IMG/VR virus record: IMGVR_UViG_2690316062_000004
DNA length: 16,819 nucleotides
Strand: one strand, 5' to 3'
Source: a virus
Taxonomy: Duplodnaviria > Heunggongvirae > Uroviricota > Caudoviricetes
The notes beneath the pieces were generated by a model that did no database searches, was not told the DNA's origin, and worked only from the letters and a program-made list of their open reading frames with translations. Position 1 is the first letter of the stretch, and the number at the start of each line of letters is the position of its first letter. Of the stretch, positions 1 to 10,695 are shown one piece after another. The translations under genes were made by a program, and so were the position numbers.

Positions 1-885
1 TTACTTTGCAATGAGATCGGGGTCAACTTCGCTAACCCGGCATCGTTTTGACCGGTTGCCCGTCTTTCTTTTTTTCACTTTCGCCAGTTCTTCCGCGGAG
101 TAATGCGACGCGACATCCAGCCGTCGAAGCCCCATTTTGATGTACTCGCTGTTGATCTCAATACCAATGAATTTTCGTCCGCTGGCGATGGCTACGGCAC
201 CGGTAGTAAAGCTACCGGCAAACGGGTCGAGAACGATATCGCCTGGGTTGGAAGAGGCGAGAATAATGCGTTTCAGTAAGGCTTCCGGTTTTTGCGTCGG
301 GTGGTTCTCATATTCATCCATTAAATAACGCACGCGCGGAAAATCCCAGACGTTACCCGGTACTTTTTGATGATTGTATGGCTGTGGAGGATTTTTGCGA
401 TAATCGATCAACGCGCGCTGCGATCCGGTTTTGGCTTCTACCAGAATAGCATCACCGTTGAATGTGTAGTTCTTTGCGTCTTTCACCATCATCAGGATGG
501 GTTCGTACATGGAGCCGTAGTGTTTTTTCGCCTGTACTCCAGAACTGTCATATGACCAGACGATGCGACTTTTGATGGTAAAAAGCTTGCGGCACTGGAG
601 ATCGATAAAGGGCATGTTTTCCGTACTGTTCATAATGTACATGCTGCCCTGCTTTTTCAGAACGCGGTGGCACTCTGCAATCACTTCAAACAGCCAGTCG
701 ATAAACAGATCTTCTTTCCAGGCTTCGATCAGACCATCAAAATTTTTACCGATGTTATACGGTGGGTCGGCAAAGATCAGATCGACGCTTTCAGTAGGTA
801 GCTTTTTAAGTTCGGCAAGGGCATCACCGTGAATAATGGTCTTAGCTTCATTACCAAACCGGGTCGGTTCACATCCTGTTCTCAT
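1..885 (-). CDS. yhdJ: DNA adenine (N6) methyltransferase, YhdJ-like
   Basis: Translation carries the N6-MTase motif IV DPPY (FADPPYNIG) and a C-terminal motif I-like DPFAGSFTTG, and matches my recollection of E. coli YhdJ along its length. Likely ATG at 885 (GGGAG RBS upstream on the minus strand); the ORF track's 891 would be a GTG start. Confidence 0.85.
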   Translation of the reverse strand: MRTGCEPTRFGNEAKTIIHGDALAELKKLPTESVDLIFADPPYNIGKNFDGLIEAWKEDLFIDWLFEVIAECHRVLKKQGSMYIMNSTENMPFIDLQCRKLFTIKSRIVWSYDSSGVQAKKHYGSMYEPILMMVKDAKNYTFNGDAILVEAKTGSQRALIDYRKNPPQPYNHQKVPGNVWDFPRVRYLMDEYENHPTQKPEALLKRIILASSNPGDIVLDPFAGSFTTGAVAIASGRKFIGIEINSEYIKMGLRRLDVASHYSAEELAKVKKRKTGNRSKRCRVSEVDPDLIAK

Positions 886-908
886 GGTCACTCCCTTTGT
901 GACACCTA

Positions 909-946
909 TAAAAAAGGCGCTTCCCCATGCCGAGTAGCGCCTTTTT
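909..946. terminator. Putative bidirectional intrinsic terminator between the fis remnant and yhdJ
   Basis: A-tract (909..915), stem GGCGCT (916..921) / AGCGCC (936..941), then T-tract (942..946). The loop is long, so this is a moderate call. Confidence 0.4.
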
Positions 947-970
947 AATCAAGCATTTAGCTAACCTGAA

Positions 971-985
971 TTAGTTCATGCCGTA
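971..985 (-). other. fis 3' end remnant, candidate attL core of the island
   Basis: Reverse complement reads TAC GGC ATG AAC TAA (Y-G-M-N-stop), the C-terminus of Fis, but the frame breaks immediately upstream (CAG then TGA). It lies exactly between the yhdJ start and the integrase gene. Confidence 0.5.
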
Positions 986-1047
986 CTGTCATATTAGCTG
1001 TTTTCATGCTTTTAGATGATTTTAATATTCATATAATAATCAATGCG

Positions 1048-1137
1048 TTGTATAAATTCATGCCTGTATATTGTTCCAGTGTTTTTCTTTGTTTATGCTA
1101 TTATGCAAGCAATTCTGTATAAACATTTGTATAAACA
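1048..1137. repeat. Four copies of (C/T)TGTATA(A/T)(A/T) upstream of int, possible integrase arm-type sites
   Basis: TTGTATAAATT at 1048..1058, CTGTATATTG at 1064..1073, CTGTATAAACA at 1115..1125, TTGTATAAACA at 1127..1137, in AT-rich DNA just 5' of the int start. Confidence 0.3.
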
Positions 1138-1155
1138 CTTTGGGCTGGGTGGTCT

Positions 1156-2376
1156 ATGGCTGGCGAACTTAACAAACTGAGCGACAGGAAGTTAAAGGGA
1201 TTACATGGTATCCCGGCCAGTAAGATTGAGTTCTATGCTGATGGTGCCGGGCTGAGCGCCAAGGTAACTAAAGCTGGTGGTATTAGCTGGGTGTTTACTT
1301 ACCGACTTGACGGGCAGAAGCTGCATCGTCTGACTCTGGGACGATACCCGGATATGAGCCTCAAAGAAGCCCGTTCATCGCGTGATAAATGCCGCCAGTG
1401 GCTGGCCTCAGGTAAAGATCCAAAGCACCAGTTGGCGTTGACTACTCAGGAAACCCTTAAACCGGTCACTGTTAAGGAAGCTATAGAATACTGGATACGC
1501 GAATATGCAGAAGAGAACCGCGCGAATGTTGAACGGCACAAAGCGGAGCTGCGAAAACACATTTATCCTTATATAGGGAAAATGGCGCTCGCTGACTGTG
1601 AAACACGATACTGGCTTGACTGCTTTGACAGGATGAAAAAGAAAACTCCAGTCGCCGCAGGTTATGTGTTCCAGATGTGCAAACAAGCCCTGAAATTCTG
1701 CCGGGTTCGTCGCTATGCTGTGAGTACCGCGCTTGAAGATTTAACAATTCCAGATGTCGGTAAAAAACAGGCAAAAAAAGACCGGGTATTAAACGATAAA
1801 GAGGCTGGCGATTTATGGGCTGCCATTTCCTCTGGCACTTGCTTCATGCCTTACTACACCAGGCTACTGACAATCTTAATAGTGTTTGGGTGCCGAACGC
1901 AGGAGGCCAGGCTATCAGAGTGGAGTGAATGGGATATGGATGCCTGGGTCTGGACAGTTCCCAAAGAGCACAGCAAGGGTGGCGAGAAGATTGTAAGACC
2001 TGTGCCGGATGCCATGCGCAAATTCATTGAAATACTGCATGATGAAACGAAACGATCCGGCCTTTTGCTTGGGTCGGTTAAAGGCAGTGAAGCGGTAAGT
2101 CAGTGGGGCCGCGGCGTTTATAAAAAGCTAGGGCATTCTGAACCATGGACACTGCACGATCTAAGACGAACTTTAGCAACGCATATGAATAATATGGGTA
2201 TAGCACCACACGTTGTCGAACAGTTGCTGGGGCACTCAATGCCGGGAGTCATGGCGATTTATAACCGTAGTCTGTACTTGCCTGAGAAACTGGATGCGTT
2301 GAATAAATGGTATGACAGACTTGATATTTTATCAGGTGGATTCACTAACATTGTTTTGTTGAATAAGGCTGAATAA
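1156..2376 (+). CDS. int: Tyrosine recombinase / phage integrase, P4 family
   Basis: 406 aa with an N-terminal arm-binding-type region, then catalytic-core signatures (R in GCRTQEA, HDLRRT, LLGH, and the tyrosine in AIYNRS). Confidence 0.9.
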   Translation: MAGELNKLSDRKLKGLHGIPASKIEFYADGAGLSAKVTKAGGISWVFTYRLDGQKLHRLTLGRYPDMSLKEARSSRDKCRQWLASGKDPKHQLALTTQETLKPVTVKEAIEYWIREYAEENRANVERHKAELRKHIYPYIGKMALADCETRYWLDCFDRMKKKTPVAAGYVFQMCKQALKFCRVRRYAVSTALEDLTIPDVGKKQAKKDRVLNDKEAGDLWAAISSGTCFMPYYTRLLTILIVFGCRTQEARLSEWSEWDMDAWVWTVPKEHSKGGEKIVRPVPDAMRKFIEILHDETKRSGLLLGSVKGSEAVSQWGRGVYKKLGHSEPWTLHDLRRTLATHMNNMGIAPHVVEQLLGHSMPGVMAIYNRSLYLPEKLDALNKWYDRLDILSGGFTNIVLLNKAE

Positions 2377-3026
2377 TGACTAGTTTTCTAAAATTGGGTA
2401 TTTTCGAGCGAGAAGCCAAAGCCCCGGAGCTAAATATTAAACAACTTGCACTACTTATGTGTGGGGTAGATCCGACAGTTAAAACTGCTGATATCCCTGA
2501 AGCGAAAGTTGAAGCTTACAATATATACTATCGACAACTGAGTAGATGGTTATCAGCATCTAAATTATTTCGAGGTGGAAACTCAACAGCCTATCCCGCA
2601 GACTATATGTTTGCTCTGGCATATCCTCTTATTGATGAAGATATTACACCACAACCCATAAAGGACAGATGCCTTGCGGCGGTGGCTATAATTGCTAATC
2701 AAAACAAAGGAAAAGAGCATCTTTATGCTATGGGAGGGGATGAGCTTTTACAGGTCGGAATTGCATTGAAAAGCAGCAAACGCGGCTTGCATCGTAAAGA
2801 AGATGAAAAGGAATATAATGATAAATTAATGGGGATGCTGGTCAAGCTTATAGCACATAAGATAGGCCATTCGTTTGGCACCTCTAAAAAACCAAGCATC
2901 TCGGCTATTTTAAACGAACTATATAAATTAGCTGATGAGGAAGGTATATCTAAAACTGGATTATCTAAATCAGCAATATATGAGAAAATTCGAAAGGCAT
3001 TAAATTCGATTTATTATACGGAATGA
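2376..3026 (+). CDS. Hypothetical protein (216 aa), AT-rich, int-coupled cargo gene
   Basis: ATG overlaps the int stop (TAATG at 2374..2378). The gene is visibly AT-rich compared with the neighbouring genes. I recognise no family motif. Confidence 0.6.
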   Translation: MTSFLKLGIFEREAKAPELNIKQLALLMCGVDPTVKTADIPEAKVEAYNIYYRQLSRWLSASKLFRGGNSTAYPADYMFALAYPLIDEDITPQPIKDRCLAAVAIIANQNKGKEHLYAMGGDELLQVGIALKSSKRGLHRKEDEKEYNDKLMGMLVKLIAHKIGHSFGTSKKPSISAILNELYKLADEEGISKTGLSKSAIYEKIRKALNSIYYTE

Positions 3027-3160
3027 ATATTATTTTGCAGTGTTAGTAGGTATTATTTATATTTCATGTGAAAATACTAATTAATTATATTTGTTGGAGC
3101 TTTTGGCGATTCTATGATCGCCAAGGAGATTCAATTGTTATATTTGATGTGTATTACCGT

Positions 3161-3270
3161 TACATTCAACAGCATTCAACAGCATTCAACAGCATTCAAC
3201 AGCATTCAACGACACGTAATGACACGTTATGACACGTAACGGCACCCGACAGCACCTAACAATACCTAGC
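3161..3270. repeat. Eleven 10-bp phased direct repeats (five AGCATTCAAC-type, then degenerate GACACGTAAT-type units)
   Basis: Read directly: tACATTCAAC, AGCATTCAAC x4, GACACGTAAT, GACACGTTAT, GACACGTAAC, GGCACCCGAC, AGCACCTAAC, AATACCTAGC, with strict 10-bp periodicity. Confidence 0.8.
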
Positions 3271-3310
3271 TCCATCCACGGTCCCTACTAGGTCATTACT
3301 TGCTAACTTT

Positions 3311-3373
3311 TTCCATCTTTGTTCATGGTTATTCATCACTGTTCATCAGCGTTCATCATTGTTCATCTTTGTT
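3311..3373. repeat. Six 10-bp phased GTTCATC-type repeats (iteron-like, one mismatch from TGTTCACC)
   Basis: ttccatcttt / gttcatggtt / attcatcact / gttcatcagc / gttcatcatt / gttcatcttt. TGTTCATC differs by one base from the TGTTCACC units clustered after the primase gene. Confidence 0.7.
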
Positions 3374-3626
3374 ATGAACAATCCAAGGTGAATCAAATCG
3401 TTAAAGAACGGTGATCTTCGGCGAGTTATTGAAATTCATGATTTTTTCTCTCGAGACAGCCGTTGAAATTACTGTGGAAACTGTTTTAAACAGGGGAGCG
3501 TTATCTTGATGGAATTTCTATCTTTCAATGGAATTGCATGTTCTTTTAAAGGATTCCAGAATCAATGGAAATTCTGGTCGTTTATCCACTAATCTCTTCG
3601 CATAACATTGAAACAGTGGAGGCAGC

Positions 3627-3911
3627 ATGCAAAATATAACCTTTACCCCGCCAAATCCTGAACAGCGCCGCACCCTTTTAGAAGAGTACGGCTTTAAGTT
3701 TGATCGCCGAATCCGTGAAGATGAATGCAGCGAGATCACCAGTCTTTCCCGTTCCAGCCGCTGGAAGATGGAGCAGCAGGGGCGCTTCCCTCCGCGCTGT
3801 CACTTTGGCCGCAATAGCTGTGCTTGGCTTCTTTCGGATGTGCTCTGGTGGGTTCGTAATCCGCCAGCAGTAGAGAACGTCAATAACCCATACAGCCGTA
3901 AATCTGCTTAA
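3627..3911 (+). CDS. alpA: AlpA-family (prophage CP4-57-type) transcriptional regulator
   Basis: 94 aa; the SLSRSSRWKMEQQGRFPPR segment is the typical AlpA/Vis-like helix-turn-helix signature. GGAGG RBS at 3619..3623 before the ATG at 3627. Confidence 0.8.
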   Translation: MQNITFTPPNPEQRRTLLEEYGFKFDRRIREDECSEITSLSRSSRWKMEQQGRFPPRCHFGRNSCAWLLSDVLWWVRNPPAVENVNNPYSRKSA

Positions 3912-3931
3912 TTAACCACAGGTAATCTGAG

Positions 3932-4624
3932 ATGAAAAAGATTAATGCCCTCCACGGGCAGGGATTCGCTCACCCTGTAGCCAGCCAGCACGATATTTCA
4001 GCGAACCGTAAACAGGTTATTTCCGGTGACTGGTCGCCCATTAATCGCGGTGAATTTACGCTTGCCGATCTGGGGTTGCGCCACAACGGTAACGGGCTGG
4101 TGTGGCTGCGTTCCGGCGTGTCCGTGCATGAGGCAGACCATGATGTAGGGATAAGCGGCAAGGACAAGACCAAAGGAAGGGTTAATGGTCTTCCTTTTGA
4201 ATTTGTCGGCCAGTGGCAGGAATACCCGACTAAACGCAGCTTTGCCGTTTCAGTATCTACGGAACTACGCCGCCAGTATTACCCGGACGATGCCACTTTT
4301 GGTAAGGCGATGCGTGAGGCGGGTTATATCCCCGTGCGCACCCGTAAATTGACCGGGAAGCTGGCAAGTTACTGGCTGTATAGAGTAACGGGTAACGATA
4401 AGGGGGTATGCACAGCAGAACCCACGCCCTGCAAGGCTTCCGCGCCAGTTGTCCAGACCATATCTAAGCCTCATCCGTGGTTTAAACGTGTGGCACTCGA
4501 TGGTAAATGGCAGTACGTCTACGCAGATCACATCCGCTTTCTGACGAAAAAGCGTCATCGCGTCGATGGTGTTCGGGTTCAGGGGTATACCGCTGGCGGG
4601 CTGAAAGTGGAGGCTATTGTATGA
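3932..4624 (+). CDS. Hypothetical protein (230 aa), backbone gene of unknown function
   Basis: Long ORF with backbone-like GC content directly after alpA. No motif recognised. Confidence 0.55.
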
Positions 4625-4734
4625 CAGGCAAAACAAAGGCGGCCATGCCGGGCCGCCAGTGCAATACCGCTTTACAGAAACATCGCCAGATTACCAGGCT
4701 TGCCGCTGGTGGTCAAACCTTGAGCCGACGAAAT

Positions 4735-4772
4735 CCGTACGCACAAATTAACCGCGTACGTTTAACGTACGG
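4735..4772. promoter_or_regulatory. CGTACG-based palindrome cluster, possible operator
   Basis: Perfect 8+1+8 inverted repeat CGTACGTT-t-AACGTACG at 4755..4771, plus a further CCGTACG half-site at 4735..4741. Confidence 0.3.
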
Positions 4773-4875
4773 AGATCGAGACAAAGGCGAACAGTATTCG
4801 GGTTCATGGCAAAACAACGTTAAACGTGGTTTAGAGGCTCCGACGAAAAACGTAGAGAGCTGCGAAGATAACCAA

Positions 4876-4945
4876 CCCTCTTTAAGAGGGGAGCCTCTGC
4901 ACAACTCATTAATAGTTGCGCAAAACAGACCCTTTTTAAGAGGGG
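4876..4945. repeat. Two copies of a 16-bp palindromic unit, CCCTCTTTAAGAGGGG and CCCTTTTTAAGAGGGG
   Basis: 15 of 16 positions identical at 4876..4891 and 4930..4945; each unit is a (near-)perfect inverted repeat. They lie just 3' of the minus-strand small gene. Confidence 0.5.
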
Positions 4946-4976
4946 CAGTCCACAGCATTACGGGGAGTAACCCTGT

Positions 4977-5150
4977 TCAGCCTTTTGGCTCGATGCCGCG
5001 CTTATCAAGTTCACGGCGCAAAAGGCGTTTTATCCATCCCGACTTATTATCGTCACCGTCTTCTTTCATCGCTAAAGCGAGCCGCTCTGACAGTTCTTTA
5101 TCGAGTCTGAGCTGCACAACATGGCGCTCTTTATTTTCGCTTGTTGACAT
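4977..5150 (-). CDS. Small ribbon-helix-helix-like DNA-binding protein (57 aa), candidate repressor
   Basis: Internal ATG at 5150 preceded on the minus strand by GGAG. The peptide [57 protein letters not shown] has the strand-helix-helix pattern of Arc/CopG-type proteins. The 38-aa proline-rich extension in the ORF track (start 5264) looks non-coding. Confidence 0.45.
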
Positions 5151-5192
5151 TGTCAACTCCTGTGGTCTAGTCTGTAGTGGAGTTGACAATGT
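5147..5192. promoter_or_regulatory. Perfect 14-bp inverted repeat with 18-bp spacer, covering the RBS and start codon of the RHH gene
   Basis: ACATTGTCAACTCC (5147..5160) and GGAGTTGACAATGT (5179..5192) are exact reverse complements. TTGACA hexamers occur at 5144..5149 and 5183..5188. Confidence 0.6.
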
Positions 5193-5289
5193 ACTACATT
5201 GCATGACTTTTAGTAAAGCAAAGCCCGGCAGTGGTGGAACACTAACCGGGCCTCTAACCACCACCGTTAGCGAAAGTAACGAGGCAGCT

Positions 5290-5481
5290 ATGAAAGATCA
5301 TATCACACACCCGCAAGGGCGGAAGTCCTACATCTGGCGTTTTCTTGCACTGAGCGCCATCGGTCGCAACGTCATTCACATCACAGCTAACACTGAGCGC
5401 GAAGCCCGTGAGCAATCACCGGCTGGCTGCGTGATGGTATGCGCTGGCCGTCTACCAGTTCAGGAGGTTCGCTATGCGTGA
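5290..5481 (+). CDS. Hypothetical small protein (63 aa), first gene of the replication operon
   Basis: ATG at 5290 with GAGG five nt upstream; stop overlaps the next ATG (ATGCGTGA). It is the only plausible part of the 324-aa track ORF. Confidence 0.35.
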
Positions 5482-5668
5482 GCCAATCTGTCTGGAGCAG
5501 GCCGAATATAAATCAGCGCTGGCTTCATCACTTTACGAAACCATCCTGGAAAAAGCCTCTGCTGAATGTTCAGAAACGCTGCTGAATCTGATTTCTATTG
5601 CGTGTGATTTTAATCAGGAAATTCACCGGGCATTAATCGCCGAGCTGCACATGGGAGAGACAAAGTGA
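5474..5668 (+). CDS. Hypothetical small protein (64 aa)
   Basis: Strong AGGAGG RBS at 5463..5468 before the ATG at 5474. Confidence 0.5.
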
Positions 5669-5880
5669 GACAGGTTCCTTTTGAAGTCCTGATGCACGCT
5701 GAAAATGCCCTTTCAGAAAGTGAGTGCGCAATGTCTGTGCTGAGCATGTGGATTGACAGCATTCCCGACGGTGAAGAACACCGTGAGGAAGCGTGCCGTG
5801 TCGGAGCAATTATGTCTCTGCTGCACAAATCTATCGGCGAGCTGGTGAAGGCGCGGGAGGCTTACAGTGCGAAATCCTGA
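5665..5880 (+). CDS. Hypothetical small protein (71 aa)
   Basis: GTG start overlapping the upstream stop (GTGA), with GGGAGAG RBS upstream. Confidence 0.45.
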   Translation: MRQVPFEVLMHAENALSESECAMSVLSMWIDSIPDGEEHREEACRVGAIMSLLHKSIGELVKAREAYSAKS

Positions 5881-6058
5881 AATCAACGATAGCTGGAAGG
5901 ATAAGCGCGGCGAACTGGTCACGGTGAAAGATAACGCATTTAACCGGGTAACGTTTGTGCGTGATGGTTACGATTTTCCGTGCATCTTTCCGCTGGAAAG
6001 GTTCGTTAAAGAGTTCACTTTCGTTAGCTGGGGGCTGAAAGATGAAAAACGCGCCTAA
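5867..6058 (+). CDS. Hypothetical small protein (63 aa)
   Basis: GTG start with GGGAGG RBS at 5855..5860; the 3' end overlaps the primase start. Confidence 0.45.
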   Translation: MRNPEINDSWKDKRGELVTVKDNAFNRVTFVRDGYDFPCIFPLERFVKEFTFVSWGLKDEKRA

Positions 6059-7811
6059 TGTGAAAACCCTCCCGCGCGACAAAATGGAGGAGGCCATCAT
6101 CTTTGCTGGAACGGGAGCATGGAAAGCCGCTCAGGATTACCAGAAAGGCAAGGGCGAGCATGGAGACGATGTTCCACCTGTGGTTCTGGATCACACCCAA
6201 CTGGCGGAATTGCCACACCTGCGCATTGTTGATAAAGGCCGTCGGTTTGCTCGTGTCTGTCAGGCCGGACTTATCGAGCAAAACCAAATCAGCATGATTG
6301 CAAATAAGCTGTGTGAGGCTGGCGTTACCAATGCTGAGTTTATCAACGAAAAAGGTGAGAAAGAGGACTGGACGCCATTAATGAAGCGTTTGGAAGACGA
6401 GCCCCTAATGGTGACTACGAGGGGTAGTGCTACGCCAGCGCTTAACCAGATGGGAGCCAGCCAGCGCGGGGAGGTTCTGCTTGCTCATTACGATGGCAAT
6501 CTGGCGATCCATGCTGATTCTGACACGGTTCATCATTACAACGGCGTGGTGTGGGTTCCGCTTTCGGATAAAGAGCTACAGCGGGAAATGGCGCAAATTT
6601 TTATTGATGCCGAAGTCGCCTATTCGCAGAACGCGATTAAATCCGCTGTCGATACAATGAAGCTGGGTCTGCCAGTGATGGGTAATACAGCCCGAAATCT
6701 TATTGGTTTCAGCAACGGGGTTTTTGATACCCGGTTAGGCCAATTTCGACCGCATGATAAAAAGGACTGGCTTATCGTTGCGAGCGAATTGCCATTCAGC
6801 GAACCAGCAGAAGGAGAGACTCTGGCAACCCATGCGCCGAACTTCTGGAAATGGCTCCGCCGCTCAGTGGCGGATAATGACCGAAAAGCAGACCGCGTAC
6901 TGTCTGCGCTGTTTATGGTGCTGGCGAACCGGTACGACTGGCAGCTGTTTCTTGAGGTAACGGGGCCGGGCGGAAGTGGTAAAAGTGTTATGGCTGAGAT
7001 CTGCACGATGCTGGCGGGCAAGGCCAACACCGTATCAGCGAGCATGGCGGCGCTGGAGAACCCAAGGGAAAGGGCGCTGGTAGTGGGCTATTCGCTGATT
7101 ATCATGCCGGATATGACCCGGTACGCTGGCGACGGCGCAGGGATTAAAGCTATCACTGGCGGGGATAAGGTAGCCATTGACCCTAAACACAAAGCGCCAT
7201 ATTCAACCCGTATTCCAGCGGTGGTGCTTGCCGTCAATAACAATGCCATGTCGTTCAGCGACAGAAGCGGGGGGGTTTCCAGACGGCGGGTGATTTTCAA
7301 CTTCTCCGAAGTGGTACCGGAAAACGAACGCGATCCTATGCTGGCCGAGAAGATTGAAGGTGAGCTGGCTGTAATCATTCGCCACCTGCTCACTCGCTTT
7401 TCCAGGCAGGACGAAGCCAAACAGCTTTTGCATGAGCAGCAGAAATCAGAAGAAGCGCTGGCCATCAAACGTGAAGGGGATTCACTGGTGGACTTTTGCG
7501 GCTACCTGATGGCTTCGGTGGTTTGTGATGGAATGCTGATTGGCAATGCCGAGATCGTGCCATTCAGCCCGCGCCGTTATCTGTATCACGCTTATCTGGC
7601 TTATATGCGGGCTAATGGTCTGAGCAAGCCGGTATCGCTGATGAGGTTCGGTACGGATATGCCAGGCGCAATGGCTGAATATGGCAAGGAGTACCAGAAG
7701 CGCAAAACAAAACATGGCATAAGGTCAAACGTCACGCTTCACGACGACTCAGAAGACTGGATGCCTATGTGGAATGATACATCTCATAACAGTGGAGAAA
7801 ATCAAAAGTAA
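6042..7811 (+). CDS. P4-family primase/replicative helicase (alpha-like, D5/SF3 NTPase)
   Basis: 589 aa; Walker A GPGGSGKS with downstream Walker B-like acidic stretch (LIIMPDMT), the usual layout of phage/plasmid primase P4-family C-terminal domains. Followed immediately by an iteron cluster. Confidence 0.85.
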   Translation: MKNAPNVKTLPRDKMEEAIIFAGTGAWKAAQDYQKGKGEHGDDVPPVVLDHTQLAELPHLRIVDKGRRFARVCQAGLIEQNQISMIANKLCEAGVTNAEFINEKGEKEDWTPLMKRLEDEPLMVTTRGSATPALNQMGASQRGEVLLAHYDGNLAIHADSDTVHHYNGVVWVPLSDKELQREMAQIFIDAEVAYSQNAIKSAVDTMKLGLPVMGNTARNLIGFSNGVFDTRLGQFRPHDKKDWLIVASELPFSEPAEGETLATHAPNFWKWLRRSVADNDRKADRVLSALFMVLANRYDWQLFLEVTGPGGSGKSVMAEICTMLAGKANTVSASMAALENPRERALVVGYSLIIMPDMTRYAGDGAGIKAITGGDKVAIDPKHKAPYSTRIPAVVLAVNNNAMSFSDRSGGVSRRRVIFNFSEVVPENERDPMLAEKIEGELAVIIRHLLTRFSRQDEAKQLLHEQQKSEEALAIKREGDSLVDFCGYLMASVVCDGMLIGNAEIVPFSPRRYLYHAYLAYMRANGLSKPVSLMRFGTDMPGAMAEYGKEYQKRKTKHGIRSNVTLHDDSEDWMPMWNDTSHNSGENQK

Positions 7812-7819
7812 TGGGAAAA

Positions 7820-8049
7820 GTGTTCACCACTATTCACCGTGGATAAAATCGTCTATTTAACAGATAGTTAAGGGGTGAACACTTTTTATTGAAGTGTTCA
7901 CCAAGTATTCACCTGTTCACCTTTAAAGGGTTTTTCTTTTAAAAGGTGAAGGGTTAGGGTGAATACTAGTGAATACTTAAAATTATAGTCTTCACCCTGT
8001 AACCCAATGAATTTAAATAGGAAAAATGCAAAGGTGAACAGGTGAACAC
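7820..8049. repeat. Iteron cluster (TGTTCACC / TATTCACC / CTTCACC and complements), putative replication origin (ori/crr)
   Basis: At least eleven copies in both orientations, e.g. GTGTTCACC 7820..7828, TATTCACC 7831..7838, GGTGAACAC 7874..7882, GTGTTCACC 7895..7903, TGTTCACC 7914..7921, GGTGAATAC 7959..7967, GGTGAACAGGTGAACAC 8033..8049, with an AT-rich tract at 7921..7945. Confidence 0.65.
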
Positions 8050-8082
8050 TTAAACGTATATTTCTATTTTTTGAGGCTACAG

Positions 8083-8427
8083 ATGGAAATTTTAGGTAAT
8101 CATAAAGACAAGTTTCAGGGTATCCAATTTCTGCATAGTGCAATCGAAGAACTGAATGAGAAAACTGGAGTAACGCTGACAGACTATCTGGCTTTAAGGG
8201 CTTTTGTTCTGGCTGAGCGAAGGGAAAATCAGGATTACATTGACGCTATGGATGCACCATATGCTGACTTACCAGATGAACTGCGTTCTTACATTGAACT
8301 TCTCAATGATGTTGCTGCACAACTGTCCAATCCAGCACGTTCAAATGGAGATTTGAGGTCAATCATTTATGATGCGAGAATATCCAGCGGAAACGCTGTG
8401 TCTCACTGGCTTAATGTCGAAAGATAA
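8083..8427 (+). CDS. Hypothetical acidic protein (114 aa), first gene of the AT-rich cargo cassette
   Basis: ATG at 8083 with GAGG at 8074..8077 (the track's 8071 would be a TTG start). AT-rich; no motif recognised. Confidence 0.55.
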   Translation: MEILGNHKDKFQGIQFLHSAIEELNEKTGVTLTDYLALRAFVLAERRENQDYIDAMDAPYADLPDELRSYIELLNDVAAQLSNPARSNGDLRSIIYDARISSGNAVSHWLNVER

Positions 8428-8450
8428 TAAAGTCTACAGAGGAAGAGTTA

Positions 8451-9296
8451 ATGCGAACTAACGATAATTTACAGATGATCAATAAACATCTGGAAGGAGA
8501 GTTTGAACGGCAATTGTTTGACTCTGCGATCTACAATCTTTTAGATGTAAATAATCAACTTCGCTTCAGTAATTATGCCTATGCACTTAGAGAACTATTT
8601 TTACACGTCATAAAACGCATGGCACCTGATAAAAATGTTCAGTCATGTGATTGGTTCCCTGGCTTGAATGAAAGAGAGCAGGTCTCAAGAAAAGACTCTT
8701 ACAAATATATAATCCAGGGTGGGTTAAGTGATGAATATGTCAGGGAAGAGCTTGATGTAAATGTTGCTGGGGTTTTTCCGAGGTTACGTGACGCATTCAA
8801 TTCATTAAATAAATTTACTCACATCAGCGAAAATATTTTCCCAATTAATGATGATGCTGGCCTCCAAATGGTCGGAGAGGTTGAAGGCTGTATCAGCGCT
8901 CTTTTCACCAAGCTTGATGAGTGTCATAAGGAGATAATTAATAAGCTATATGAAGCCGTTAGTGAGGCCGCGATTCATAGTTCGATAACTGAAACTGTAA
9001 CATCAATTGATATTTTATCGACACACAGTTCGGTTGATGAAGTGTATGTTGATGATGTTAAAATAGTAGAAATAAATGATACTGAAATAGTTTTCTCTGT
9101 TATTGGTTCTGTAGGTGTCGGGTTGCAATGGGGATCTAATTCCGATTTGCGAAATGATATTGGTGCTGTAGGTAGTGAGACATTCCCATTTACCTGCGAG
9201 GTGAGAAGTCCAGTGTATGCCCCTGAAAGTTTAGAGTGTGATGAAGGGGCATTCCATGCAGATACTTCAAGCTGGTGGGAAGGGTATTACGACTAA
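8451..9296 (+). CDS. Hypothetical protein (281 aa), second gene of the AT-rich cargo cassette
   Basis: ATG 24 nt after the upstream stop; AT-rich; followed by an intrinsic terminator. Contains an R-x4-H stretch (RELFLH), which is only weak evidence for any fold. Confidence 0.6.
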   Translation: MRTNDNLQMINKHLEGEFERQLFDSAIYNLLDVNNQLRFSNYAYALRELFLHVIKRMAPDKNVQSCDWFPGLNEREQVSRKDSYKYIIQGGLSDEYVREELDVNVAGVFPRLRDAFNSLNKFTHISENIFPINDDAGLQMVGEVEGCISALFTKLDECHKEIINKLYEAVSEAAIHSSITETVTSIDILSTHSSVDEVYVDDVKIVEINDTEIVFSVIGSVGVGLQWGSNSDLRNDIGAVGSETFPFTCEVRSPVYAPESLECDEGAFHADTSSWWEGYYD

Positions 9297-9333
9297 CAAG
9301 TGTAAATTATTTGTCCTCGCGCTTATTAGTGCT

Positions 9334-9360
9334 TAGCCCGATTAAATTCGGGCTTTTCTT
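9334..9360 (+). terminator. Intrinsic terminator after the cargo cassette
   Basis: Stem AGCCCGA (9334..9340), loop TTAAAT, stem TCGGGCT (9347..9353), then TTTCTTT. Confidence 0.6.
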
Positions 9361-9528
9361 TATTATTTTCATGTATATGTTGAGAAGTGGCACTCAGACG
9401 TGAGCCGCCACTGGCCGTTAAGTCAAGCTGTAGCGAGTACAGCCTGCGAGAGGCAGAAAAAGATTTAACGGCCTCCCCCCTAAGCGCTGGTTTCACGTCT
9501 TAACATTAATTGTTACGGAAACCACTCC

Positions 9529-10695
9529 ATGAAGAAACTACTCGAATTACGCCAGCAGAAAGCCGCACTCAAAACACAGATGCGTTCCATGCTGGACAAA
9601 GCCGACACCGAAAAGCGCAGCCTGAACGAAGAAGAGGGCAAAAAGTTCGATGAACTCCGCGCCCAGGCTGATGCGCTTGAAGTTGAAATCACCCGTCTAG
9701 AAGCCGTCGCCGACGATCAGCGCAATCTGCCTGGTACTTCCGTTGAAGGTGAGCCAGTAAGCAACGACGAGCTGCGCCACTACATCATGACAGGTGATAC
9801 CCGTTCTCTCTCCACGCTGGTGCAGGCTGATGGCGGCTATACCGTTATCCCTGAGCTGGACAAAGAGATTATGCGCCAGTTGCAGGATGATAGCGTGATG
9901 CGCTCCATCGCAACGGTGAAGACCACCAAAACCAACGAATACCAGAAGCTGGTATCTGTGGGCGGCACTACCGTTAATCGTGGTACCGAAGGTGAGGCAC
10001 GTACCGAAACCAGTACGCCGAAGATGGAGCGCGTTGATATCAAACTCAACCCGATCTACGCCTACCCGAAAACCACTCAGGAGATTCTCGACTTCTCCGA
10101 GGTGGATATTTTGGGCTGGCTGTCTTCTGAAATTGCCGACACCTTCACCGCGACCGAAGAAAGCGACTTTGTGAACGGCGACGGTGATAAAAAATCCAAA
10201 GGCTTCCTGTCTTACCCTCGCGCGGCCACTGCCGACAAAACCCGTCCGTTCGGTACGCTGGAGAAGATGGAAGCGGCTGACGTTTCCTCTGATGGCCTGA
10301 TCGACCTGCTGTATAAGCTGAAAGCCAAATACCGCAAAAACGCCGTATGGGTGATGAACTCCAACACCGCAGCCAAACTGCAAAAGCTGAAAAACGGCAA
10401 CGGGGATTACATCTGGCGCGATCGTCTGGTTGCCGGTTCTCCCGATACGCTGCTGGGCCGTCCTGTTCAGTATCTGGAAACCATGCCGGATGCGGAGGCA
10501 GGTAAAGCATTCCTCGCGGTAGGCGACTTCAAGCGCGGCTATTTCATCGTGGATCACACCACTGGCGTGCGTACCCGCCCTGACAACATCACCGAGCCGG
10601 GTTTCTACAAGGTGCATACCGATAAATACCTGGGCGGTGGTGTGGTGGACTCCAACGCCATCAAGGTGCTTGAGCTTTCAGGCTCCGGTTCCTGA
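9529..10695 (+). CDS. Major capsid protein, HK97 fold, with N-terminal coiled-coil scaffold-like domain
   Basis: 388 aa. The N-terminal ~100 aa are highly charged and helical (delta-domain-like), followed by a capsid-type body. Its position directly before a prohead protease and portal supports the call. Confidence 0.85.
   Translation: MKKLLELRQQKAALKTQMRSMLDKADTEKRSLNEEEGKKFDELRAQADALEVEITRLEAVADDQRNLPGTSVEGEPVSNDELRHYIMTGDTRSLSTLVQADGGYTVIPELDKEIMRQLQDDSVMRSIATVKTTKTNEYQKLVSVGGTTVNRGTEGEARTETSTPKMERVDIKLNPIYAYPKTTQEILDFSEVDILGWLSSEIADTFTATEESDFVNGDGDKKSKGFLSYPRAATADKTRPFGTLEKMEAADVSSDGLIDLLYKLKAKYRKNAVWVMNSNTAAKLQKLKNGNGDYIWRDRLVAGSPDTLLGRPVQYLETMPDAEAGKAFLAVGDFKRGYFIVDHTTGVRTRPDNITEPGFYKVHTDKYLGGGVVDSNAIKVLELSGSGS

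Follow-up and report, generated by a model that had tools for sequence, protein, structure and literature searches.

The DNA analyzed here is a 16,819-nucleotide stretch (the window; IMG/VR record IMGVR_UViG_2690316062_000004) that, judged from its open reading frame (ORF) content and its annotated relatives, is a phage-inducible chromosomal island (PICI) of the capsid-forming type (cf-PICI) of Escherichia coli, in support of a preliminary description made from the sequence alone, which had taken the element for a phage satellite. Two genes, ORF-A and ORF-B, occupy a slot between its replication origin and its capsid operon, and the larger of them, ORF-B, is by sequence comparison a full-length member of the pP_pnuc or Aga_Nuclease family ("predicted pPIWI-associating nuclease"), carried here as satellite cargo with no Argonaute in the window. 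We lean, with modest confidence, toward ORF-B being a stand-alone anti-phage defense effector, in which a HEPN-like, probable RNase module is combined with an NTF2-like sensor or regulator, and which travels as hotspot cargo. That the slot cargo would confer phage resistance is argued solely from guilt by association.

The family assignment is secure. ORF-B matches Pfam PF18165 (pP_pnuc_1) over residues 12-137 (5e-32; 110.7 bits, with a gathering cut-off of 26.3) and PF18166 (pP_pnuc_2) over residues 156-276 (1e-36; 126.2 bits, cut-off 25), and it aligns with the PADLOC Aga_Nuclease model PDLC02413 over model positions 3-267 of 267 (1e-84) and with PHROG 29508 (6e-59). The Pfam pair and the PADLOC model describe the same family, with which ORF-B shares both the two-domain architecture and the conserved residues; the 198 homologues recovered (~256-335 aa) all have both domains and include no fusions. 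The preliminary description recognized no family in either gene product, which stands for ORF-A (no match in Pfam, NCBIfam, or PADLOC) and does not stand for ORF-B. The features of ORF-B are as follows.

8451 to 9296, plus strand: ORF-B, 281 aa, preceded by a AGGAAGAG Shine-Dalgarno sequence
8484 to 8861, plus strand: pP_pnuc_1 domain (residues 12-137), a predicted helical bundle with a HEPN-like fold; R47, W68, G91, and H124 are invariant
8589 to 8606, plus strand: codons of R47-E-L-F-L-H52, the R-x4-H motif noted earlier
8916 to 9278, plus strand: pP_pnuc_2 domain (residues 156-276), a predicted helix plus curved four-stranded sheet, NTF2/cystatin-like

The AlphaFold2 (AF2) model of full-length ORF-B (pLDDT 87.5, pTM 0.81) is helical in the N-terminal half, with four beta strands in the C-terminal half, confirming the division into a helical and a beta-rich part that had been read from the sequence, and the C-terminal part is NTF2/cystatin-like. 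The N-terminal domain superposes as an all-alpha up-down bundle on HEPN structures, and the best structural matches to this domain alone include the toxin-antitoxin (TA) toxins RnlA and LsoA together with HEPN toxins. The model thus supports a HEPN-like N-terminal domain at the level of the fold, and HEPN membership at the sequence level is unproven: searches with 18 family members and with full-length ORF-B brought up no HEPN sequence profile at E up to 10, hhalign gave 0.2% for ORF-B against RnlA, and neither the ORF-B protein nor its profile could be linked by sequence to a solved structure. A Foldseek search of the PDB with the full-length model returned nothing at E < 0.001. The R-x4-H stretch RELFLH had been offered as a hint of a HEPN-like nuclease; the hint holds as far as the N-terminal fold goes and gains nothing from the profile searches; the motif is present in ORF-B, its arginine is kept throughout the family, and its histidine is kept in most members. 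Across 173 homologues, R47, G91, and H124 are present in all, H192 in 172, D232 in 171, E48 in 160, and H52 in 154, the remainder having L, N, I, or V in place of H52; R47, H124, H192, S229, and D232 are scored as the strictly invariant polar residues. The pP_pnuc_2 domain carries a net charge of -19, and its near-invariant residues are D187, H192, the loop Q226-W-G-S-N-S-D232, and D271-T-S-S-W275. Literature searches for pP_pnuc, PF18165/6, and "pPIWI-associating nuclease" found nothing relevant. The pP_pnuc family and the hotspot were known previously; what is new is that they are combined here, that the family turns out to be mostly Argonaute independent, and that its fold is assigned as HEPN-like/NTF2-like.

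The PIWI/Argonaute association that defines the family is absent at ORF-B. Searching the window by phmmer with the short prokaryotic Argonaute (pAgo) and SIR2-APAZ proteins of a Bradyrhizobium locus (L066) finds nothing, and the large ORFs are all accounted for (int, pri, capsid, portal, and terL), leaving none as a possible pAgo. The same is true of nearly all of the family. A scan using one genome per species yielded 55 loci from Proteobacteria, Bacteroidota, Planctomycetes, and Nitrospirota, and among the 53 with a callable gene, bona fide short pAgo and SIR2-APAZ queries both hit in a single locus, with a SIR2-type protein near pP_pnuc in one Pseudomonas locus; the association is thus missing from 52 of 53. 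The single Argonaute-linked copy among the sampled loci is that of Bradyrhizobium sp. ORS 375 (L066, 3561-7855), an operon of SIR2-APAZ (613 aa), class I short pAgo (484 aa), and pP_pnuc (290 aa). No neighbor family recurs at the 53 loci, either within three genes or directly adjacent on the same strand. Upstream genes of ~155-175 aa recur by size and raised the possibility of a hidden conserved partner, but they are mutually unrelated, and this candidate was rejected.

The neighbors that do occur include many defense genes: LmuB (5), mad3, PD-Lambda-1, PD-Lambda-2_B, AbiLi, PtuA, AriA, and Shedu SduA_C, as well as SIR2, type IV restriction endonuclease, nSTAND, and SLATT genes, and a Burkholderia copy adjoins N6-methyltransferase, PRTase-CE, and ORC/CDC6-like genes. 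The family is rare in viral contigs, with 14 loci in 2.9 million IMG/VR contigs, six of which are the same island as the window, and tblastn with ORF-B found no homologue in 50,697 phage records. Separately, we note a locus in a Bacteroidetes metagenome-assembled genome (L033, 698-5326) in which pP_pnuc follows, by 38 nt, co-directional genes of 416, 182, and 644 aa, the last being LmuB (8.8e-83); it could be a Lamassu locus to which pP_pnuc has been appended.

These distributions bear on an explanation that we regard as highly improbable, namely that ORF-B is an anti-defense protein or DNA/RNA mimic that disarms host immunity, or a trans-acting Argonaute accessory (for example, in guide processing) whose pAgo is encoded elsewhere. 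Mobile elements carry anti-defense genes in the same hotspots, and the extreme acidity conserved throughout the family would suit a mimic, but the near-invariant R47, H124, H192, S229, and D232 have the look of a catalytic site or a ligand-binding pocket, not of a mimic's surface, and a family that is overwhelmingly chromosomal and solo, and so sparse among viral contigs, argues against anti-defense. For an accessory role there is the one genuine SIR2-APAZ, short pAgo, and pP_pnuc operon of Bradyrhizobium, and guide production by a HEPN protein linked to an Argonaute has a precedent in Agap-HEPN (PMC11162769); the accessory role is countered by the presence of Argonautes beside only one of the 53 loci.

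The position of ORF-B is that of exchangeable cargo. The preliminary description placed two co-directional genes of 114 and 281 aa in an AT-rich insert bounded by an iteron origin on the left and an intrinsic terminator on the right, and ORF calls, Shine-Dalgarno sequences, G+C content, and ratios of nonsynonymous to synonymous substitution (dN/dS) confirm this picture, except that the terminator is reassigned to the island backbone. The remaining features of the slot are listed below.

7816 to 8054, no strand assigned: iteron array of the replication origin, GGTGAAYAC-type repeats in both orientations (repeat families D1-D6, inverted repeats I1-I16)
8035 to 8062, plus strand: putative sigma-70-like promoter (TGAACA, 16 nt, TATATT) from a consensus scan, with 9/12 matches, which is not above shuffle expectation
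8073 to 9300, no strand assigned: exchanged AT-rich block comprising exactly ORF-A and ORF-B, from blastn boundaries with islands L002 and L077 and from G+C content
8083 to 8427, plus strand: ORF-A, 114 aa, ATG start, with a GAGG Shine-Dalgarno sequence 7 nt upstream
9335 to 9364, plus strand: intrinsic terminator (AGCCCGA, loop, TCGGGCT, T-run) with a 7-bp GC-rich hairpin

The closest sibling island, L002, is 94-96% identical to the window up to 8072 and from 9301 on, with unrelated genes between; because the match to L002 breaks off at 8072 and picks up again at 9301, what has been exchanged is exactly the two genes. The iteron array (94% identical to L002 up to 8072) forms the conserved left border of the slot. 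The terminator, the sole terminator-like site in 7700-9600, separates the cargo from the capsid operon and lies within a 96%-conserved right flank common to L002 and L077, and because homology to L002 has already resumed at 9301, it belongs to the backbone and not to the insert. From 7812 to 9296 the G+C fraction is 0.34-0.41 (origin, 0.34; ORF-A, 0.41; ORF-B, 0.39), compared with 0.52 for pri and 0.55 for the capsid gene. The predicted promoter overlaps the last iteron, 20 nt upstream of ORF-A, and may function as such; an alternative ORF-A start is a TTG at 8071, and a 23-nt spacer separates ORF-A from ORF-B. With dN/dS values of 0.11-0.17 for ORF-A and 0.14 for ORF-B (compared with copies 85-90% identical), both are, on substitution patterns, real genes under purifying selection.

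Comparison of homologous islands, as the preliminary description had advised, reveals different gene sets between conserved flanks, in line with its suggestion of a variable hotspot. Ten complete E. coli genomes have an island with the same pri type, and four of these carry ORF-A and ORF-B, whereas six carry an unrelated 86-aa gene and two reverse-strand genes that match PADLOC PDC-M18A/B (3e-71 and 1e-22). PDC-M18 is a two-gene candidate system, found in the same slot between the same conserved flanks and on the opposite strand, and its proteins are unrelated to ORF-A and ORF-B. In another cf-PICI, which shares the capsid module, an 87-aa gene is all that the slot contains. The slot is directly downstream of pri/ori, and its gene content differs among related islands; the region next to pri has been described as the PICI immune region by He et al. 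(PMC11364771), and the slot is its cf-PICI counterpart. Three other, unrelated satellites, from Raoultella (L008), Buttiauxella (L009), and Pectobacterium (L079), also have pP_pnuc just after the replication gene, and gene order in these elements indicates that satellites have captured the family repeatedly at this position.

The first gene of the slot has a history of its own. In islands lacking ORF-A, the first position after pri/ori is taken by a small-protein family of 86-87 aa (L002, 9288-9548; L077, 5683-5946; L079, 3713-3973), whose members are 31-52% identical to one another and unrelated to ORF-A, and the slot seems always to begin with one or other of these two small genes. ORF-A is acidic (pI 4.7), as had been noted, and matches PHROG 7232 (5e-14); relatives are scarce, with eight matches among 1.84 billion representative proteins, and every copy with readable context belongs to a cf-PICI or a fragment of an island, where it follows pri as the first gene. 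From these searches, ORF-A is a member of a very small, cf-PICI-restricted family and is not an obligate partner of ORF-B. Its homologues (31-45% identity) in three other cf-PICIs (L017, L018, and L019) adjoin unrelated reverse-strand genes of 159 or 170 aa in the slot and no pP_pnuc gene, and the islands of the 45% and 31% homologues differ both in primase and in downstream cargo. The 170-aa cargo of one of them, that of Klebsiella (L017, 4385-4897, minus strand), recurs at 60% identity in the Pectobacterium PICI (L079, 4006-4512, minus strand), behind an 86-aa-family gene and alongside pP_pnuc; because this cargo follows either small-gene family, the small first gene and the cargo assort independently. 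The ~170-aa protein has a hydrophobic C terminus. It might correspond to the Tai that He et al. (2024) took from Pectobacterium PICIs, but BLAST shows no similarity to TaiEcA.

These data also speak to whether the two genes form a TA-like pair, with ORF-B as a HEPN-type toxin held in check by the upstream acidic ORF-A and freed by phage host shut-off or ORF-A degradation, as for RnlA-RnlB, LsoA-LsoB, and HEPN-MNT. The arrangement is suggestive, with co-directional genes, the short spacer, a single terminator, and exchange as one block between nearest sibling islands, and so is the presence of RnlA, LsoA, and HEPN toxins among the structures that best match the N-terminal domain. The two genes are moreover inherited together (79-100%) in the lineage whose members are at least 79% identical, even in a decayed island fragment (L078). 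Beyond that lineage the pair is not kept, and we consider a TA module unlikely: the ORF-A homologues of other cf-PICIs sit beside unrelated cargo, the ORF-A profile finds no match in ~60 other pP_pnuc loci, which share no adjacent gene family, pP_pnuc occurs without ORF-A in satellites L008, L009, and L079, and ORF-A has no antitoxin-type domain. The two gene families are therefore independent of one another, and the fixed two-gene system envisaged by the preliminary description is not borne out. The L078 fragment itself (733-9127, on a Pantoea-like contig) runs from the 3' part of pri through the origin, ORF-A, and ORF-B to the first 45 nt of the capsid gene, and adjoins a 1,232-aa reverse-transcriptase gene.

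A different possibility is that ORF-B serves the island's life cycle by interfering with its helper, binding a helper capsid, terminase, or tail protein and favoring packaging of the island, with a logic like that of Ppi, Cpm, and Tai-type binders. ORF-B stands directly before the capsid operon of an island that must parasitize helper tails, it is strongly acidic, domains of the NTF2/cystatin-like kind typically serve to bind or inhibit proteins, the fold searches brought up no nuclease, and the same hotspot holds Tai, a tail-protein binder (PMC11364771). Nonetheless, we find this explanation quite unlikely. Because six of ten siblings with the same pri and capsid lack ORF-B, it is dispensable for the island cycle; most family members are chromosomal, in distant phyla and far from satellites, often among defense genes; and neither ORF-B with TaiEcA nor ORF-A with AtiEcA of phi80 shows BLASTP similarity at E up to 1, in addition to the lack of any ORF-B homologue in the phage records. 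Identity with Tai/Ati (PMC11364771) had been suspected from the presence of a Pectobacterium PICI Tai at the same position and of a Pectobacterium ORF-B homologue. The likeness extends to the hotspot downstream of pri, the satellite class, single-gene cargo, and a small neighboring gene, but TaiEcA is phi80 orf63 (204 aa) and AtiEcA is orf64 (76 aa), to which ORF-B and ORF-A are unrelated, and Tai is mostly phage-borne whereas ORF-B has no phage homologue; this identity was rejected.

In the stand-alone defense model that we favor, ORF-B would act without Argonaute as a single-protein, abortive-infection-type anti-phage effector. Its HEPN-like N-terminal domain would be catalytic, most likely as a metal-independent RNase using the invariant R47 with H52 and/or H124, and its acidic NTF2-like C-terminal domain, with a pocket of near-invariant His, Asp, Ser, and Asn residues, would be the sensor or regulator, binding a phage-derived protein or a small molecule. 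ORF-B is probably co-transcribed with ORF-A, from the origin-edge promoter to the backbone terminator, and would therefore be expressed in the quiescent island. ORF-A would be a distinct small protein of cf-PICIs, its place at the start of the slot in this lineage being a matter of chance. A broader proposal, which we put forward tentatively and are inclined to doubt more than to believe, is that pP_pnuc is at heart an autonomous single-gene immune sensor-effector, with a cryptic HEPN-like RNase under the control of an acidic NTF2-like ligand- or protein-sensing domain, that is distributed over at least four bacterial phyla, has been captured repeatedly by satellites, and was recruited occasionally by short-pAgo/SIR2 operons.

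Known single-protein defense genes offer the nearest parallels to this logic. ApeA, as reported by Gao et al. (2020), is one such gene with a HEPN domain, and the AbiD/F, AbiU2, and AbiV families of HEPN proteins are others; all combine, as proposed for ORF-B, a HEPN RNase and a regulatory domain in one polypeptide and act by abortive infection. ORF-B has no PADLOC or Pfam match to the ApeA, AbiD/F, AbiU2, or AbiV families, and we know of no description of a HEPN-like plus NTF2-like combination for any of them. RnlA and LsoA, the endoribonucleases of the anti-phage RnlAB and LsoAB TA systems, have no sequence relationship to ORF-B; the extra domains of RnlA are NTD/NRD whereas that of ORF-B is NTF2-like, and the RnlAB antitoxin is downstream and obligatory, whereas ORF-A is upstream and not conserved with the pP_pnuc family. 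Agap-HEPN, of the AmAgo system, resembles ORF-B in belonging to an Argonaute-associated family, in having a HEPN domain recognized by structure prediction only, and in its extra unidentified domain, and it is a proven RNase required for phage defense (PMC11162769). It differs in that its catalytic R is at position 262, no BLAST homologues were reported outside its own clade, and it depends on its long pAgo, with Agap alone giving no protection (PMC11162769); by this description it is probably a different family. Two further candidates were rejected: the BPAN nuclease bAgaN, associated with long-B pAgos, is a RecB-like PD-(D/E)XK protein of a different fold and family (PMC10620215), and the pPIWI-RE operon nuclease described by Burroughs 2013 is an REase-fold protein accompanied by a DinG helicase.

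Several observations weigh against an RNase-based, stand-alone defense role. Within the N-terminal domain, 11% of homologues lack H52, and the R-x4-H motif is on the second long helix rather than on the usual last core helix. No known nuclease fold was matched by the full-length model, and "nuclease" in the family name is a computationally predicted label. Not only is ORF-B acidic (pI 4.5), but the family is uniformly so (median pI 4.6, median net charge -25), and acidity this strong is seldom seen in enzymes that act on nucleic acids; a protein binder or a mimic would account for it no less well. The association with defense neighbors consists of raw per-family counts. Finally, ORF-A and ORF-B are exchanged jointly in the nearest relatives, and a lineage-specific functional link between them may exist.

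Should ORF-B protect alone, a family of hundreds of members across phyla would constitute a new one-gene defense system. PADLOC gives the family as an Argonaute accessory only and not among its stand-alone PDC models, and any tool that reports the family only beside Argonaute would miss the stand-alone copies, which make up 52 of the 53 sampled loci. If the model is correct, the third gene of some SIR2-APAZ/short-pAgo operons, labeled a "nuclease", would likewise have a testable mechanism as a HEPN-like RNase. In the pri-proximal hotspot, pP_pnuc joins Tai and PDC-M18 as a third type of cargo; the hotspot operates in capsid-forming PICIs too, and its exchange borders are mapped here at 8072/8073 and 9300/9301.

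The island as a whole has the order integrase (1156-2376), AlpA-like regulator, D5/primase-type pri (6042-7811), iteron origin, ORF-A and ORF-B, and an HK97-type module of capsid, protease, portal, head-closure, connector, HNH, TerS, and TerL genes. An E. coli contig is 99.7% identical to the window over its full length, with the island there between yhdJ and fis, and a copy of ~90% identity is present in 4 of 5,426 complete E. coli genomes. To the right of the slot, between its terminator and the capsid start codon, is a 176-nt leader (9355-9530, plus strand) whose predicted fold is much more stable than that of shuffled sequence (minimum free energy, -59.9 kcal/mol; z -5.4). It contains a CATGTATAT box followed by the hairpin GTGGCACTCAGACGTGAGCCGCCAC, which are kept in seven of seven islands compared, one of these being a Pectobacterium PICI in which they lie just downstream of its pP_pnuc gene. 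The hairpin shows compensatory changes at two pairs and, like the window as a whole, has no Rfam match; the leader may be a late-operon control element and the right-hand recombination anchor of the hotspot.

Two other regions of the window resemble accessory slots. At the 5' side, an AT-rich 216-aa ORF (2376-3026, plus strand; G+C 0.38) overlaps the stop codon of the integrase gene and matches no family; a DUF6387 protein is at this position in a related E. coli island, and the region probably represents an accessory slot on the 5' side. At the 3' end, a 297-aa ORF (15926-16819, minus strand; G+C 0.38) after terL is also AT-rich and matches nothing in Pfam or PADLOC, although caspase-like His and Cys motifs (GHGSMHG ... 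GQCYAG) can be made out by eye; in full-length copies a 100-aa gene comes next, in sibling islands the place is taken by a DUF3892 gene, and this end of the island looks like a second accessory slot. Lastly, the Klebsiella cf-PICI with an ORF-A homologue (L017) is part of GenBank PQ569648, the 106-kb record of Klebsiella phage P12620-1, where it occupies the right end (97-105 kb) with a primase, the unannotated ORF-A homologue, capsid (92% DNA identity to the window), protease, and portal genes; this segment may be a co-assembled or co-packaged satellite.

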